Below are positions 9,491-51,108 of a stretch of DNA of 64,000 nt, in pieces. The notes beneath the pieces are model-generated. The model saw only the letters and a list, made by a program, of their open reading frames with translations. It had not been told where the DNA came from and did no database searches. The translations under genes were made by a program, and so were the position numbers. This DNA comes from Chrysomallon squamiferum (taxonomy: Eukaryota; Animalia; Mollusca), in contig CM022674.1 of the NCBI GenBank assembly GCA_012295275.1, forward strand, positions 7,812,001 to 7,876,000, written 5' to 3'. Position 1 is the first letter of the stretch. Each line of letters begins with the position of its first letter.

Positions 9491-9944
9491 ATGGAAGGAG
9501 GTAAAATTGTGTGTGTGAGTGTTTGGGTTTGTCTCGTGTTTCTTTCGTTTTGTCAACTTCACACTTGCCGAAAGACGGGCTGTCACGAAGAAACTCTTGA
9601 AATTCGAGAGGAACATGCGAATGTCGTTATATCTGGGACTGTCAGAGAAATTATACCTGATTCGAATGGAGATAAAATGTATAAAAGCCGGATCGAGGTG
9701 AAGCGAATTTTTAAAGGCAATTCCATCGTGAACTCGGTGGCAAATTTTGAAGATCCTGTGACCCATCACAAAATGTTGATGGTAGAAGGATTTGGAGATA
9801 ACTCTATATGTGACAGTGATGTTCGACCACACGACACTAGGATATTTTTACTAAATAACGAATCTTACGGTGTGTTAAAACTTAACTCTAGCATAGTGCC
9901 AATTACTTTAATTAACCTGGAACATACAGACGCCATTGTTAAAG
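9491..9944 (+). CDS. AGRN: Agrin first coding exon: signal peptide + N-terminal agrin (NtA, laminin-binding) domain (secreted LN-type isoform)
   Basis: The ORF reads MEGGKIVCVSVWVCLVFLSFCQLHTC (hydrophobic signal peptide), then CHEETLEIREEHANVVISGTVREII...EVKRIFKG...VEGFGDNSICDSDVRPHDTRIFLL...LKLNSSIVPITLINLEHTDAIVK. This matches recalled NtA motifs (C.E..LE.REE.ANVVLTGTVEEI; V.GFGDP.ICD..V..GDTRIFF; LNSSL..ITL.NLE). It ends at a phase-1 donor AAG|GTACGT (454 nt = 151 codons + 1). Confidence 0.93.
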
Positions 9945-37186: not shown

Positions 37187-37542
37187 TATTATTTTTGTAT
37201 TGTGTGTGTATTGTTTGTGGGTTGTTTGTGTACTTCGTGTTAGACTTTCAATGTGTTAGCTTTCACAGTGTGAACTAATTGGTTCAGTAGTCAACTGAAA
37301 TTTAATTTTTGATATGATTAGGGATTTTTAAAGTGCCATGGTCTTGTATTGATACAAATACTTGACACTGTTATTAAATTCATTACAGCTAGATAGTAAT
37401 CTAATTTACTATTTAGTTACTTTTGTTTTCTTTATTTACATTCACAAGTAGATCTTTAAATGTTTTTGTTTCACTTTGAACTAAGAGTTACATATAGTTG
37501 GAGAGAAACAGTCTTTAAAAGGCTTATTTGGTTTTTTTAACT

Positions 37543-38110
37543 AACAGATTTGTATTTCACTACATGGAGGTATGTCTAAGACACTTATATAACAGATTTG
37601 TATTTTACTACATGGAGGTATGTCTAAGACACTTATATAACAGATTTGTATTTTACTACATGGAGGTATGTCTAAGACACTTATATAACATTTGTATTTT
37701 ACTACATGAAGGTATGTCTAAGACACTTATATAACAGATTTGTATTTTACTACATGGAGGTATGTCTAAGACACTTATATAACAGATTTGTATTTCACTA
37801 CATGGAGGTATGTCTAAGACACTTATATAACATTTGTATTTTACTACATGAAGGTATGTCTAAGACACTTATATAACAGATTTGTATTTCACTACATGAA
37901 GGTATGTCTAAGACACTTATATAACATTTGTATTTTACTACATGAAGGTATGTCTAAGACACTTATATAACAGATTTGTATTTTACTACATGGAGGTATG
38001 TCTAAGACACTTATATAACATTTTTATTTTACTACATGAAGGTATGTCTAAGACACTTATATAACAGATTTTTATTTTACTACATGGTGGTATGTCTAAG
38101 ACACTTATAT
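37543..38110. repeat. Minisatellite, 12 copies of a 48/46-bp unit (AACAGATTTGTATTTTACTACATGGAGGTATGTCTAAGACACTTATAT)
   Basis: Near-perfect tandem copies, counted directly: 8 of 48 bp and 4 of 46 bp. Confidence 0.97.
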
Positions 38111-39809
38111 AACTGGCAATAGCACTGGATGAGAATCAAAACAGCTGACACAGATTTACAATTTGCTGACCCACACCTGACTTCAGAGTAGACAGGTGGT
38201 GACCCTGGACAACCTCACTTGACTGCCTACCTGCTTTTGTTACACCTGTAGCCTCAGGTAACACAAATAAAGAAAGAAAACTTAGACAGTAAATTGATTT
38301 GTGAAGCATGAACTTTTGTACAAACATTGCCCGAAGCCTGAAACACATGTCCAGTAAATCACACAGCATGCATTGAGTTAAAAAACTCATCATCTGCAAG
38401 TTGTAGAACGAGTCTAGATTAGAGTTAGAATGATCTCTTAATTTATTAACTGTCTGTAATATGGAAAATTCTAATGTATTAATATTTTTCTAGATTACAG
38501 TTTGAAAGAGAATAATTTGTATATATAAATATAAAGGGTGTCTGCAATATATTAATGTTATCCATTTTTAATCATGTGATACAAAAGAAAATGAAAAATG
38601 ATTTGTGCAAAATTACTAACTGGAATGAGTCTTCAGTTTTCTCATTGGCACAAACTTGTGTAATATTTTACTTAATAAGTGAAATAAACCATGGCATGTA
38701 TGTTGTAAATATATATTTGTGTCATTTAAATGTGTATATTCATGATTATTAATGTGTATATGTTTGTAAGCATGTATGAATGACTGAAAAAGCTAGTGAT
38801 CGCAGAGTATGTGTGTATGTATGTGTGTCTCTTTGTCTGTGTTGTTCTGGTTAGATGTTAAATAATTTTTTCCATATTGTAACAAAACAAATCTTGGTAG
38901 TTTGTTTTTCAGATGCACATTTCTTTAAAAAGTGATTTTGGCATGTTGTTCTTATTACCATAGAAAACCATTTAAAATTTTTTTTTGAAAAATTACAACT
39001 GCTTATTTGCCCAGTTAACATTTATATACAAAATACGTAGACAGTCCACTGGGATTCAACAACCATAACATAAGAAAATTAGAGAACCATTTATTGTCAT
39101 CATCCTGTACAGGCTTGTTAATCTGATGATTCAGTCTGTTGTTATTATTTCTCATAAACTTGATTACGTTCATTTAGTGGCTCAATCTAATTATTTAATT
39201 TCTCATGGGCAATGACCAAAGTGCAAATTAACTTTGAAATTTGGTGATGTATGTGAAGCTTTTAGCCATTTATCTGTATAATCTGTATAATAATCTAAAA
39301 TAATACTGAATTTTGGATCTTTGATTTTTGTCTTTGTTTAACATATAAAAGGATATACTGAAACTTTATTTCAATTTTTTTTTATTTTTTTTTTATTATT
39401 ATTTTTTTTATGAACTGTAGACAATTTTTTTTTATGGGACTCAGTCTAATATGATTTTTGGTTTAACTCTTCCAGCTAGTTATGTATTTGTTTTCATGTG
39501 TGTGTGTATGTGTTTAATTGTTTGTTGTTAAATAAATATTTATAAAATTATTTAACCATTAAAAATCTGGTGAGCATGTTTATAAGAGCTGTTTTTTTGT
39601 TTTTTAAAACTTTCTTTGTGTTGAATGCCTGTTGCCAGAATCTTGTCATTTCTATACAAGTCAGCATGTGTAGCCTGAAATACCAGTTATAAAAACTTAC
39701 TGAATAAACACATATTTAAACTACCCATATTAACAATGATTTCATATTATTTTTATAAAATTGTAATACCAATGAGGAATAACACTACAAACATTTTATA
39801 TAGGTTATG

Positions 39810-43615: not shown

Positions 43616-44679
43616 AGTAACGTTACAATCCTGGAGGATAATAAACCTTACAGAGGTCATTATACTTAATGCATGACATGTCATGACTCATTATCATTTG
43701 CATTTGGTGTACAGTAATGAAAATAACTGTAATTATCAGTGTTAGTCATGAATTATTTCTTGCAGAGTTAAGGACAACAGTTGTACAAGTATTGATATCT
43801 GCACATTCCTATTCAGTATAATTGTTAGAGAACATGAGATGGGAGTTGGCTGATTAAACATCCGACTGTGTGATATGAGTTTTATTCCACAGTTTATAGC
43901 TGTCAGGTGAAATGGTCAAATACTGATGATAGGTATATCAGTTCACTGATTTTTGTGAAACTGATGGATTCAGTAAATTTGTTTATGTGGTGTGTGTCTA
44001 TGTATGGATGTGATTGTATGTTTGTGTGTACATGTGTGTGTGTGTGATGGTGGTGATGTGATGGGATATGATTATATGTCTTTATATGTGTGATTATGTG
44101 TGGATTTATAATTGTATATGTATGCACACAGCACAATCAGTGGTCCACATATATGAAGCATAAATGTTTTAAGTAATGACCAAATTATCAAACTTGTAAA
44201 CAATCCACAAAGAAAAGAATCAAATTTAAATGTTTGTCTAAAATGAAACACAATACAATATATATAAACTAATTAAACAAGTTAATGGATGGTCCAAAAG
44301 TAAACTTATAAACACAGGTTATAAAAGACCCACACAAGCAATGACACAAAACAAATAAGCATATAGATGTTACAGAAAGAAACTGGTGAACACTGGTGGA
44401 AATAAAACTATATCAAGATATATTAATTATGTTAATGTATGGTATAAACTAAACATTTCAGTATATGTTAATCCACAATGTTAATTAATCATATGTATCA
44501 TATGAGCCATCATTTGTGTGTAGAATTGCATTTTCCATGTAAGTGACAAAGGCTAATTTTGTAATGAATATTAATATTTATTCTGTATCAGTTGACGATA
44601 CACTTCAACAGTCTTAATTAACAGAAAGAAATAACTTGTGTGCTTTCTCACTACTATAGTAGCATTGTCAAGTATGAAA

Positions 44680-45060
44680 CTCACGCATGTTATTGATTGG
44701 TGTGGCTCAAGTCTCAAAACGTGGAGCTTTGTTACAACTACCAATACTTTTTAAAACGCCAGGAAGCATCAGCAACATCACTATTTCCGTGGTCGTTTTG
44801 CAAACAACTACTTACAGTACCGCAACTGACCAGCTACTGAAATGTCCACTTTTTGTCTCTCATTGGCTTGTTATTTGATTTTCTCTCCAAGTGAGTGTGT
44901 ATCTGCTGCTTGAGGAGAATCGTGGGGAAAAAGGGAAAAAGCCAATTACACAGTTAGCAGAGAGTTTTGTCATCAGCTGATTGGCTTTGTGGACTTCAAA
45001 AAAAAAAAAAAAAAAAAAAAAAAGTTATTCCACGGAGCTGTTTGATGTTTTTTTTTCAGT
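44680..45060 (+). promoter_or_regulatory. Candidate internal promoter for the transmembrane agrin exon
   Basis: Five CCAAT/ATTGG boxes (44696, 44741, 44862, 44942, 44980) and local CpG retention, ~0.6-0.9 kb upstream of ATG 45616. Confidence 0.55.
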
Positions 45061-45615
45061 GATTTGTTTGTTTTGTACTTACACTGACATGTAAACAGTG
45101 CTTGTTTTTCTGATCATTTTCAAATTGTGTGTGTTTAGGATTTACTGTTGAATTCCTTGTCAGAAGTTTTTGAACACTGTGGGCCGGAATGCTATTCTAA
45201 ACAAAGTTTTGTTACAGTGATAATCAGAGAATTACTAAAGCTTGATTAAAAATTTATTTCAGATATTTGTTTGTTGCTGAAGTTTGCTATAAACATAAAA
45301 TTGAAAACTATTCAATATAATTAAATTCATAATGTAATAAAAAAATTTAAACTTAGTGAAGTTAATTTACTAAAAAAATGTGACATTTTAATGATAATAG
45401 AAAGTGTGAGATAAACCATGATGTGAAACATGTGCAGATATATTATAAGTAATTCAAACCTGAACAGATGTAAATATTTCATGAAAAAGTAAGATGAATA
45501 TTTGAAAAAAGAAATCTATAAATTTTGACATTCAAAGATGAGCATTAAAGAGACAAAATAGAAAAAGTTCGTTATACAACATTATGAGGATTTTTCGTTG
45601 AATTGATTGACCATC

Positions 45616-45817
45616 ATGGTTGTCCTAACCAAACATGCCATGACAATTGTGTCAGGCAAAAACACTTGTCTGGTTTCTACTCATGTGGCTGCACGGGGCA
45701 GGGTCAGGAAGTGTGTGCGCAGAAACCGCCTGGCACTTCTCTGTGTTTCTATGGGATTATTTTGGTGTGTTTTAGCCATAGTCATGATTCTCCAGTACTC
45801 AAGACTCATAGCACAAG
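45616..45817 (+). CDS. AGRN: Candidate alternative first coding exon of agrin encoding a type II membrane anchor (TM/SN-agrin-like N-terminus)
   Basis: The ATG has strong context (atcATGg) with an in-frame TGA at 45604. It encodes MVVLTKHAMTIVSGKNTCLVSTHVAARGRVRKCVRRNR-LALLCVSMGLFWCVLAIVMIL-QYSRLIAQ, a basic cluster followed by 21 hydrophobic residues. It ends at a phase-1 donor CAAG|GTAACA (202 nt = 67 codons + 1), the same phase as the NtA exon and the downstream microexon acceptor. Confidence 0.7.
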
Positions 45818-48800
45818 GTAACAACTCTTTTGTTTCAAAGTTAAAAATATTTTCATTAATTAGTAGAAAAAATCCTGTCATTTGCTATAATGATAAAAAA
45901 ATGTTATCTAGAACATTGATTTATATCATCAGTTATTGTTTTCATTTAATAAATATCATTAGAGATCATTGCTTCTTTTTTGCAGGTTAAACTTTTGGAT
46001 ATCCTCCATAAAATATATATATAATACTTTACATCTGAAATATAATCTTTTATACAAACCTGCCCATAGGTGGGAAAATTAAATGGCCATTATAAAAATC
46101 AGTTAAAATAGGAAATGGCACAATACTTTGATTAAAGAACTGTAGCTATACTGTAACTTTAAATGTAATTAACAGTGTTAGAAGAGCATATAGAAATAAT
46201 TAAAAATTTGCAGAAATATAATCTTTTATAAGAACGTTCTCGAACTGTAACAGAAATAAGTTTAAATATAATATAATAGTCTTAGAACAGCATGTAGAAA
46301 GAATTTTGAAATTATTTTATAAAGGAAAGATTTTATTAATATTATTTTCTCTGATAGTTAACAAACTGTAACAATTGTTTATTGGCATAAATTAATTAAA
46401 AACTTACATAAAAAGATGTCATTTCCCCTAAATGACACATGGCACCAATGTTTTATAATTAAGCTATCGTAGTTCACTCTAATGTCTGTCAGTCTAAAGT
46501 TGTGATTTCTTTTTGTGCTGTTTAAATCAACTGCTTCAAGGAAATCAGATTTAAAATTTGTTATATTAACTTCATTGAGAACAACACAGAAATACATTCC
46601 CATTCAGAAAGAAAACAACATTTGTGTGTACATGCAGCTGAGAAGGAGAAAGAGAATTTTAGCTGAATTTTATTAACAGTTATATAAAAGTTCACTGTCT
46701 TATTTTGTTTCACACACACACAAAAGATAAAACATTAATTATTAATTATAATAATGTAAATATCAATATTAAAAAATTCATAATAAATTGTTGAAATTGA
46801 ATTTCCTGAATTAGAAGTTTAGAAGTCTTGAAAAATTTAGAATTATCAAAGTTTGACTGTCCTTGTAATCATAGCATTCTGGTTAAAATGAAAAAGAAAA
46901 CCCCAGTGAATTCTCACATTTCTCAGAAGAGAATTAAATGTCACAGTTATAAGAAAAAATCTTGGTCAACTAATATGGAGCTTAGTTGCCATTGACAACC
47001 ATCATTAGGTGCCATTTATTCCATTATTGAACTGTACATTATTTTTTATTGTTTTATTTTTTTTCCCTTATTTCGGTAATTTAAAACTAATGGCTGTTGC
47101 TTTTTTAAAACATGTTTAAAAATGTTCTTTTGAAACCACAAATGGAAAGCATTTTAAAATTTTAATTTGAAATATGTTTTCATTCAGATGGTCTTTGTTT
47201 ACATTACAAATTACAAAGTATATGAATATTTGTAGATACATATGTGTCTGTTTTGAAATAGAGTTAATGTAATTGCATTATAAGACCAGAGAGAGAGAGA
47301 GAGAGAGACACAGAGAGAGACAGAGAGAGAGAGACATTTGATTAACAAGATATATTTTATAAACATTTTATTTTACTGAGCAGGTATGCACATACCAAGG
47401 TCTATAGACTGCTTGGAATGGAAATTTGCTCTGTAAGCCATTGATGAAGATTGCTCTTGTAGTCTTTATACCATCTACAAACAAATTATCTGTAGCCTAC
47501 TTTATTGTCTCTGAGACAAAATTAACCTGGGGTTAAAAAAATAATAATAATAAAAAAGAAAGAAGTAAGTAGAAACAAATAAAATTGAACAAATAAAATT
47601 AGAAAAATAAAAGAAAAACTTATTTGCTTTTCACATACATAATCAGTTAGAAAAAACAAAATCAATGATAAAATGGCTTCATTTTTTTGGGTTTTTTTTA
47701 AAGTTATTATTTTTCTTTTCAACCACTTATTGCTGTTAAATTCAGTATATTGAATTTCATCTACACATGAGCACAGACATTTAGTTTTAGTTTGGGTTTC
47801 TGGTTAGAAAAATAAAAAGATTAAAAAGCAGTTATGAATTTACAATTTCTGCTGAAGTTTTAAAGCAAAATTTCTACCAGAAAATCTGTATCAGTTCTAA
47901 CAATTTTGTCACAATCTGTAGAGAAGTATCTAGAGCAAAAATAGTATTAAAAAAAAAAGAAGTCAAAAATTAAAAAAAAGTGAAGAAAATAAATGAAAGA
48001 AAAACCAGCAAGTGAACATTTTTGACCCAGTGTGCGGTGAAGTGTGTGGAATGAGGGTCCCTGTCTGCAGGTTTAATTTATAACTGTTGAGCAACACAAC
48101 AAAACAGCAAATCTTATATGCTAATCTGCACAGTGATTACCCAGATGTGTACATTTTCCACCAATAAAACCTTACATTAAATTGATTGTTGTGAAAATAT
48201 TGAGTTCCTATTGATCTTTTTAGTTTCAGCTGATGGCAATCAATGATTTAAAATCTGTGTAAAATCAGAATATGAAATGTCTGTGTATGTCTTAATACAA
48301 AATATCTGAATTCATCTAAAATGTGGAATTTTGAAGTATGTCTAAATGTGATCTCATACTTCTTATAATGATGTAAAGATATGGAATTTCAGTGTACAAA
48401 TAAATACGAAATATCTATATTATAAAGATATGAAATATCTGTGTTTATCTAAACTGTGGTATAAAGATATGAAATTTTAGAACACAATGCTGTAGGAATA
48501 CGTGAAATGTCCTTCAGTGTCCAGAATGAAGATATGAAATTTCATGTACAACATGTAAATAGCATTGCCAATACTGTTAATTGTTTTGGTAATGATTTTA
48601 TATTAAATTACATGTTTATGTATTTGTTCACTGTCTGTGGGATTGGAAAATTTAAAAAATAATTTTTTTTTTAGTTTTTTTTTTTAAATCTGAGCAAAAA
48701 TAAAAATGGATGTAAAAAAATCTGAGATATTGATTATATAAATAATTTATTCATATTTTATTATTTTACAAAAATGAGTAAAATGTTTTCAGTGATTATG

Positions 48801-50271
48801 CTTTAAAAATATATAATCTGATATTAAATGTAAATTGATAAATGATTTAAAGTATTAAAACATATGCACACTCACATCTGCACCCATCTTATAAATAAAT
48901 AAAAAAATAAAACAAATTGATAAATATATATACAAAAGATATGTGGACACACACACAAACACACACACACATAACACCATCTACACATAATACACATTCA
49001 CACACATATATACAACTATATACATAAACACAAATAATACTACTAAAGTGAAGACACTAATAAAAATGAATAATCCATAAACATATAAGCCTTATTTAGG
49101 GTACAAAAAAAATGAAAAATAGATATTATTTTTATAGGTGAAAATGTTATTAACAAATACAGGTAAACTGCAGGTAAATAACTGATATCTTTTTCATAAT
49201 CTTCTACAATACATAAAATATAAATCTATACCAGTGATAAAACATATGTATTGTATTTTTTATGTACAATTATTTGATTGCTTTGATGAAGTTGTATAGA
49301 TTATATTGATCAAAAAGTTATTTATTCCACAAAACACAAAAATATATATTTTATTCATACCACTGCAATCAGTGATCAGAGTGATGTGTTGTCATGTTTT
49401 ACAGTTATAGAACATTTTCAAGTAGATTACACTATCTGGTGTTACAATACCGACATAAAAACAACAGGCTGTGGCATCAACTTTCTTTAGTATACCCTTG
49501 AGAGAATTTCCTCTTCTGACAAATGTATCATTACGTAATAAAATATTAACATATCAAAAGGTGCCTTTTCCTCAAAATAAAAATAAATAGTAATAGTAAT
49601 AATAATAATTAAACAACAACAAAAAAAAATCGATAAAAAAATAAAAAAAAATACATGAAATGAACAAATATTATTTAAAAAATAAACATTAAATAATAAG
49701 AAATTAAGAAAAATTAAAAAGTAAATAATAAAATGTATTAAATGACAAAACGTTTTTTATTAAATTAGTTCTGATAAATAAATATCCTTGCTGTTTTGTT
49801 TATAGTCATTTGTTTATTATATAAATAATTCCACTTGAACTTGAAGAAAAACATGACACTCTTATATTTTTCAGTTATATTTTTTAATTATTATTATTTT
49901 TACTTATTTATCATCATTATTATTATTATTATATATACATTGTCATTTTTCTTTTCATCACATTTAAGAAAAAGGTGTGTTTTTGTTTTTTTATACTTAT
50001 CTTTGTATGAAAATATAAATATGGTTAATTTCAGCTGTTACTAAAAAGAATATTCAAATATTTATTTCTAAATAATTTTGTTTACAGCTTAGTCATTATG
50101 ATTTCCTGTTATATCTGGTGCCTACAGAATTTAAATATTATACTTTTTTATTAACAAAGTTTGTTATAACATATATTGTTAATAAATTTTGTTTTTATAT
50201 TTTTTACAGGTAGAAATGAAATACTTGTTAGATGGTTTTTGTTAAGAATGATTATTTTTTTTTTTTTACAG

Positions 50272-50307
50272 GTAGACCTTACAAAGTGCCAGAAGAGCCT
50301 AAAAATG
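50272..50307 (+). CDS. AGRN: Agrin 36-nt phase 1-1 proline-rich linker microexon, (G)RPYKVPEEPKN
   Basis: It has a long poly-T acceptor TTTTTTTTTTTTTACAG| and a consensus donor ATG|GTGAGT. It is 36 nt and open in the frame set by both upstream phase-1 donors. It is positionally analogous to the short Pro-rich vertebrate exon (KPG.HFTP.PPTPPD) between NtA/TM and the first follistatin domain. Confidence 0.8.
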
Positions 50308-50404
50308 GTGAGTAAAATCTATTTCTTGTTTATGTAGCTGTGATTACATTAAAACTTACTAAACCTACAAATACTAAACTGAAGTATAAATGTATTCAGT
50401 AACT

Positions 50405-51108
50405 ACAGATTCAGATTCAGCTTATACCAACATACTGAAATTCAGCTCATTCCTTTTTGAGTTTCAGCTTATTACAAGTACACTGAGATTCAGCTTATTA
50501 TAAATACATTGAGATTCAGCTTATTACCAATACACTGAGATTCAGCTTATTATCAAAACACTGATATTCAACTTATTATAAATACATTGAGATTCAGCTT
50601 ATTACCAACAGACAGAGATTGAGCTTATTACCAACAGACAGAGATTCAGCTTATTACCAAAATACTGAAATTCTGCTTATTACCAACAGACAGAGCTTCA
50701 GCTTATTACCAATGCACTGAAATTCAGCTTATTATCAAAACACTGGTATTCAACTTATTGTAAATACATTGAGTTTCAGCTTATTTCCAACACACCAAGA
50801 TTCAGCTTATTACCAGTGCACTGAAATTCAGCTTATTACCAATGCATTGAAATTCAGCTTATTACCAATGCATTGAAATTCAGCTTATTACCAACGCATT
50901 GAAATTCAGCTTATTACCAACGCATTGAAAGTCAACTTATTACCAACGCATTGAAATTCAGCTTATTACCAACGCATTGAAAGTCAACTTATTACCAATG
51001 CATTGAAATTCAGCTTATTACCAATGCATTGAAATTCAGCTTATTACCAACGCATTGAAAGTCAACTTATTACCAACGCATTGAAATTCAGCTTATTACC
51101 AACACACT
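50405..51108. repeat. Minisatellite, ~27 copies of a 26-bp unit (TTCAGCTTATTACCAATGCATTGAAA)
   Basis: The 26-bp period is read directly (e.g. TTCAG at 50827 and 50853). The 5' copies are diverged and the 3' copies homogeneous. Confidence 0.95.

Follow-up and report, generated by a model that had tools for sequence, protein, structure and literature searches.

Introduction

Agrins of vertebrates are described with two alternative N-termini (PMC2874008), and in what the papers on the subject say of it this pairing is presented as a vertebrate feature (PMC2874008; PMC1939731; PMC11200632), one of them assigning the N-terminal splice choice to mammalian agrin (PMC11200632). The best described case is the mouse gene, in which, by the account of Burgess et al. 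(2000; PMC2189804), a single SN exon follows the LN exons: LN-agrin goes to the basal laminae, SN-agrin is cell-bound and neural, and the two transcripts proved separable with a gene trap. Outside vertebrates, Table S1 of Banyai et al. (2010; PMC2874008) gives the agrins of Apis mellifera and Tribolium castaneum as type II proteins with the N-terminus inside, as predicted by TMHMM; this table does not use the word 'alternative', and the main text of the paper names no mollusc. The same survey states that practically nothing is known of agrin function in invertebrates, and that the receptor-clustering inserts and neurotrypsin sites are absent from those it covered. Echinoderm agrins are reported to be mostly without the NtA domain, two sea stars having a membrane-type segment labelled MFS (PMC10381214), which may be a membrane start of the kind considered here. 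We found neither the mollusc exon reported below nor any invertebrate dual switch described in print, although such a statement may exist in subscription papers or in further supplements.

The DNA analysed is a stretch of 64,000 nucleotides from the mollusc Chrysomallon squamiferum (contig CM022674.1, positions 7,812,001 to 7,876,000 of the forward strand), called the window below and numbered from its first letter. A preliminary description of it had taken transmembrane agrin to be known mainly from vertebrates; in print, type II agrins had been predicted for bee and beetle in 2010. Our explanation, which we hold with good confidence, is that positions 45616-45817 are a coding exon conserved in molluscs, which likely has its own transcript start in the intron behind the NtA exon and is likely spliced to a 36-nt exon. 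The predicted product is a type II membrane agrin lacking NtA and having a short cytosolic tail.

The agrin gene and its NtA exon

Judged by its sequence, the gene is a gastropod agrin, because its NtA region resembles those of gastropod agrins: the identity is 84% with Gigantopelta aegis and 60-65% with Haliotis and Patella, and all eight matches of this region in a homologue search are mollusc agrins. An agrin is expected to have NtA followed by follistatin, laminin-EGF and LamG domains; here the Pfam NtA match (Table 1) is complemented by a follistatin-type exon in the RNA contigs. The remaining domains lie beyond the window, which ends before the exon following 50272-50307.

Five sequencing runs cover part of the window. 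Four of these are RNA runs from one study, seen as assembled contigs, which drop rare forms. The NtA exon, directly followed by a phase-1 donor, is joined to the common exon (9944->50272) in three of three RNA runs with contigs over 44300-50420 (depths 77, 27 and 44), and in two contig sets of three RNA runs the contigs extend past the common exon to the follistatin-type exon. These contigs use the true acceptor at 50272 and not its near copy at 50190-50215, which lies 61 nt 5' of the common exon and whose use would lead to a frameshift into a stop. The introns also contain minisatellites at 50415-51106 (26.8 copies of a 26-nt unit) and 37542-38113 (12.1 copies of a 48-nt unit). The membrane-type exon stands between the two joined exons, with 35.7 kb separating it from the NtA exon and 4.5 kb from the common exon; this is the placement of an SN/TM-type exon.

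Table 1. Features of the Chrysomallon squamiferum agrin locus, in window coordinates
Feature	Position	Strand	Basis
NtA first exon, coding part (signal peptide and complete NtA domain in one exon)	9491..9944	+	Pfam NtA, E 5.1e-27
In-frame TGA 5' of the start codon	45604..45606	+	sequence
Alternative (membrane-type) first exon, coding part, 67 codons and one base	45616..45817	+	sequence and homology
Basic juxtamembrane stretch, residues 27-38, six K/R and one Cys, predicted cytosolic	45694..45729	+	sequence; flank charge of homologues
Predicted signal-anchor helix, residues 39-59, with G-x-F-W-C motif, then invariant Tyr	45730..45792	+	sequence; mollusc alignment
Phase-1 splice donor GTAACA (CAAG|GTAACA)	45818..45823	+	sequence; unspliced in the one listed RNA contig covering it
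First common exon, 36 nt, Pro-rich linker ahead of follistatin domain 1	50272..50307	+	both ends spliced in RNA contigs

An intronic exon conserved across molluscs

The intronic 67-codon frame is, on the evidence of sequence comparison, a real exon conserved across molluscs, because agrin isoforms of other molluscs begin with the same segment. Its ATG has A at -3 and G at +4; the basic stretch (residues 27-38) is devoid of acidic residues, and residues 39-59 form a 21-residue uncharged run with a mean Kyte-Doolittle value of 2.74. As read from the sequence, this exon and the NtA exon both end in phase 1 and both run in frame onto the common exon. A rule-based exon filter retained one donor in the 40-kb intron, none on the antisense strand and none in 20 of 20 shuffles, a weak control whose rules were set post hoc.

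The same exon starts the models Haliotis rufescens X5 (XP_048250097.1), H. cracherodii X6, Biomphalaria glabrata X6, Argopecten irradians X1, Ruditapes philippinarum X6 and X7 (two different copies), X3 of the chiton Liolophura sinensis (XP_064610787.1), Octopus sinensis X11 (XP_036359771.1) and one cephalopod-type fragment, covering four mollusc classes: gastropods, bivalves, chiton and cephalopods. Its last residues can be seen by eye in truncated models of H. asinina and Potamilus. All are automatic RefSeq gene models from agrin isoform lists, named only 'agrin-like isoform', and not cloned cDNAs. The start of H. rufescens X5 is identical to residues 30-67 at 29 of 38 positions (76%). A Leu, the G-x-F-W-C motif and a Tyr are invariant in all nine aligned sequences; the juxtamembrane Cys is found in six, the other three having Phe at this place. 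Ahead of the basic stretch, the cytosolic tail shows no conservation among molluscs. The common layout is a basic stretch, a helix with G-x-F-W-C, the Tyr and a junction 7-8 residues further on, and the window exon has each of these. In each of the six mollusc species examined for this, the sequences of the NtA and membrane isoforms coincide from the same junction residue onwards.

When the 2874 stop-free stretches of the window are scored with a profile of the eight mollusc homologues, from which the window sequence was left out, this frame comes first at E 8.6e-20 and the runner-up stands at E 0.27. Against 411 collected proteins the profile gives ten matches at E 4e-21 or better, namely the eight training sequences, the window peptide (3.7e-21) and the cephalopod fragment. 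Searches with the 67-residue peptide itself return less: none of nine candidates in a direct homologue search (proteins over 118 residues), no Pfam family, and in the ESM Atlas unrelated matches alone, at 0.79 or less. Among listed isoforms, the membrane start is absent from those of the closest relative, Gigantopelta (0/3), and from those of Babylonia (0/4), Littorina (0/6) and Patella (0/1).

The preliminary description had recognized an apparently invertebrate agrin, and the Pfam and Gigantopelta matches place it among gastropod agrins. Its reading of a start codon in good context behind an in-frame stop, of 38 residues ahead of a 21-residue hydrophobic segment and of a phase-1 donor in frame with the exon that NtA also joins was reproduced, the last at the level of sequence. 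It had further proposed a candidate TM/SN-type first exon in the large intron, for which conservation in relatives was to be sought. The annotated isoforms of four mollusc classes, with their shared junction, now support such an exon, its type II anchor being a prediction.

Two bivalves are set apart by their isoform lists. In Ruditapes philippinarum, two copies of the membrane exon (working labels P0192 and P0194) join the same common exon, and NtA is found in none of 13 listed isoforms; it is likewise found in none of six in the scallop agrin cluster. Some bivalves may have lost NtA, or the domain may lack annotation in them.

Agrin starts in other phyla: one origin or several

A membrane-type start directly before follistatin domain 1 is present in insects, horseshoe crabs, a tick, a barnacle, Priapulus caudatus, the crinoid Anneissia japonica and teleosts. 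Both an NtA-like and a membrane isoform occur in the beetles Tribolium castaneum and Tenebrio molitor: among 25 sequences tested with an NtA profile made for this analysis, their non-membrane isoforms score E 1e-11 to 4e-10, and membrane starts E 2 or worse. The two beetle forms diverge up to a D/Y junction residue, as expected from a phase-1 intron. In fish, a phase-1 junction is suggested by a fragment that apparently continues past the donor unspliced and carries Cys where that Tyr would be. The helix is directly followed by [N/H/K]-Y in 50 of 53 non-mollusc membrane starts, many of them from related insects (one low-complexity row of 63, P0105, was removed before the count), whereas the mollusc exon extends six residues beyond its Tyr. 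No membrane start was seen in Lingula (0/7), Lineus (0/2), lamprey (0/7) or amphioxus (0 of 15 listed among 84 members).

Two further observations concern the other N-termini. The NtA-like domain of beetle and bee agrins is divergent; it is missed by precomputed Pfam lists and detected by the profile built here (E 1e-11 to 3e-7; working labels P0404, P0399, P0406, P0072 and P0069). There is also a third agrin start, in which a classic cleavable signal peptide is followed by C-Y-x-[FY]-P and joins at follistatin domain 2; the product would be secreted and would lack both NtA and follistatin domain 1. It was found in gastropods, bivalves, cephalopods, horseshoe crab and insects (working labels P0018, P0050, P0063, P0151, P0325, P0390, P0408 and others), and within the window no convincing exon of this kind was detected, the best hit (E 0.011) being on the wrong strand.

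Position, phase and a helix-polar-Tyr ending are shared across phyla; sequence is not. The order of helix residues was compared by column permutation (1000 permutations, 15 comparisons, p-values uncorrected), a test with little power on 22 hydrophobic residues. It relates insects to chelicerates and crustaceans (p 0.001) and gives uncorrected hints, which are hints only, for crinoid-priapulid (p 0.011), insect-priapulid (p 0.034) and fish-crinoid (p 0.057). For the mollusc helix this low-power test detected no homology with any other group (p 0.35-0.63), vertebrate SN exons as represented by fish included (p 0.43); fish and insect helices are likewise not significantly related (p 0.36). Of the non-mollusc membrane starts among the 411 proteins, none scores below E 1 against the mollusc profile.

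We lean slightly towards a single bilaterian origin that includes the molluscs: the ancestor would have run agrin from alternative promoters, one for a matrix form with NtA and one for a membrane form of type II topology, the two meeting at one phase-1 intron, and molluscs, arthropods, priapulids, echinoderms and vertebrates would have kept this arrangement. In this reading, to which as a whole we give slightly better than even chances, protostomes would add the third, short secreted start skipping follistatin domain 1. A serious contender, though we rate it below even chances, is that the mollusc exon arose independently of those of vertebrates and arthropods at the same favourable phase-1 intron, which would be compatible with our explanation of the locus itself. 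It accords with the mollusc helix matching no other clade while insects match chelicerates and crustaceans, with the six residues past the Tyr, and with the four groups of animals in which no membrane start was seen; against it stand the same junction and helix-polar-Tyr ending in five phyla, the weakness of the helix test, which does not relate fish to insects either, and the incompleteness of isoform lists. The matrix-or-membrane switch of agrin is likely to be far older than vertebrates or to have been invented more than once. If ancestral, cell-surface agrin would have existed more than 500 million years before the neuromuscular role of agrin in vertebrates.

Anchor or signal peptide

An uncleaved type II signal-anchor with its N-terminus inside is the favoured reading of the helix, as a prediction, because of helix length, basic flank, high conservation and the lack of a shared cleavage site. 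An uncharged run of 21-27 residues is found in all ten mollusc membrane starts, behind tails of 12-44 residues, and the N-flank carries a net charge of +1 to +5 in nine of nine mollusc homologues. Over the 25-residue helix region the window sequence shares 20 residues with Haliotis, 17 with the chiton, 15 with Biomphalaria and 11 with Octopus. In the same pairs the NtA signal peptides share 8, 6, 6 and 6 of 25 residues, and the NtA domain is 74, 53, 47 and 36% identical. The helix is hence conserved at least as well as the folded NtA domain and, in this respect, is unlike a signal peptide. The third class of agrin starts serves as an internal control: its uncharged runs measure 7-17 residues, and the -3/-1 pattern is present in 20 of 21, with the cleavage site picked by eye before the conserved Cys-Tyr. 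The positive-inside, N-in topology proposed earlier likewise stands as a prediction.

It is improbable, in our estimate, that the exon is real and its helix a cleaved signal peptide, which would give a secreted agrin without NtA. A looser -3/-1 rule does allow a site at residues 64-66 in the window species, and two of ten homologues have a strict one, at differing positions; yet the length of the helix and of the tails before it, the absence of a common site and the level of conservation speak against cleavage, and molluscs already possess another start that lacks NtA and has the features of a classic signal peptide.

RNA evidence and use of the exon in Chrysomallon squamiferum

Junction reads for both first exons had been suggested as a check. 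The RNA contigs answer for one of them: the NtA joint is present in three of three runs, and the joint 45817->50272 in none of four, these being contigs of one study. Neither a joint nor a loose end at 45817 appears among those listed for the four RNA runs (X1-X4). Among the pieces listed, a single contig covers the membrane exon (run X2, depth 2.1) and passes its donor unspliced, like the surrounding intron, where contig depth is about 2-7 across 38-46 kb. An apparent RNA enrichment over 44.6-45.9 kb was rejected as evidence of expression, because the runs had been selected by that very stretch and the wider intron is equally low in depth.

Upstream of the exon lies an island of raised GC content at 44700-44990 (41-43% against about 25% nearby) with a strong donor after 44890, crossed unspliced by low-depth RNA contigs; an acceptor-like site is found at 45060, and 15 upstream ATGs are found within 44700-45615. 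The island is possibly the promoter and untranslated exon of the membrane form. Within the exon a single variant was seen, 45778 A>G (in a DNA-depth run and one RNA run), a conservative Ile55Val change to the residue of Haliotis.

There is a small chance that the exon is a silent or scarcely used leftover in this species, as might be suggested by its splice in none of four RNA runs and its start in none of three listed Gigantopelta isoforms. Against this, its frame, start context and donor are intact, it retains 76% identity to Haliotis, its one variant is conservative, and the RNA comes from one study in a form that drops rare transcripts. An internal cassette exon, which would be spliced behind the NtA exon and entered in phase 1 at the in-frame AG of 45654-45655, is very improbable, since this AG has no pyrimidine tract and no acceptor-like site lies past 45060, the segment is skipped in all RNA contigs, the homologous models all start with the exon and none has NtA ahead of it, and the product would place the follistatin domains in the cytosol. 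The alternative first exon is thus the reading retained; we infer its splicing in C. squamiferum, and likewise the topology, promoter and any neural bias of the membrane form.

A proposed matrix-or-membrane switch

Two promoters, as in the mouse, are the most likely arrangement by analogy. From the upstream promoter would come the form with signal peptide and NtA, whose splice is seen in RNA; once secreted, it would bind laminin in the basement membrane, judging by vertebrates. A second, intronic promoter would exchange NtA for the 38-residue tail and the uncleaved helix. The basic flank would hold the N-terminus inside the cell, with the follistatin, laminin-EGF and LamG domains facing outwards at the cell surface; the ectodomain would be that of the NtA form. 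The juxtamembrane Cys is a candidate palmitoylation site, and the invariant G-x-F-W-C face might, hypothetically, pack against another helix.

An exon shared across the molluscs, its intramembrane motif unchanged, shows that a membrane-type start has been subject to selection throughout this group. Through probes or knock-down, the exon gives isoform-specific access to cell-surface agrin in snail and cephalopod neurons. The role of this form could thereby be addressed in animals presumably without the vertebrate receptor-clustering inserts and neurotrypsin sites, going by the invertebrates surveyed in PMC2874008. Membrane-type starts also explain the apparent lack of NtA in many invertebrate agrin models.

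Comparison with known agrins

The locus resembles the vertebrate pair of SN/TM- and LN/NtA-agrin, as described for the mouse (PMC2189804), in having NtA-coding sequence, a short intronic exon and a short common exon in the same order, in replacing NtA by a short tail with a hydrophobic helix, and in the phase-1 junction (inferred for fish). It differs in having a single NtA coding exon, against at least three in the mouse, in the spacing of the membrane exon, which in the mouse lies 8 kb after the NtA exons and 0.4 kb before the common exon, and in the length of the unique part of the membrane form, 67 residues against 49 in vertebrate SN-agrin (PMC2189804). Promoter and neural bias have been demonstrated for mouse SN-agrin (PMC2189804) and are presumed for the mollusc form, whose helix has no detectable homology to that of fish.

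The bee and beetle type II agrins are invertebrate proteins in which, as here, an N-terminal helix immediately precedes follistatin domain 1; for each insect this is the one architecture given (PMC2874008, Table S1), whereas we see beetles with both forms, and in residue order the insect helix is unrelated to that of molluscs (p 0.35). C. elegans AGR-1 is, like the window gene, an invertebrate agrin orthologue (Hrus et al., 2007; PMC1939731), for which 5' RACE is reported to have given one secreted isoform and no membrane form. The closest counterparts are the RefSeq mollusc agrin models, among them XP_048250097.1, XP_036359771.1 and XP_064610787.1, with an orthologous exon, the same motif and the same junction: the mollusc membrane start is latent in database models and was foreshadowed for insects in 2010.
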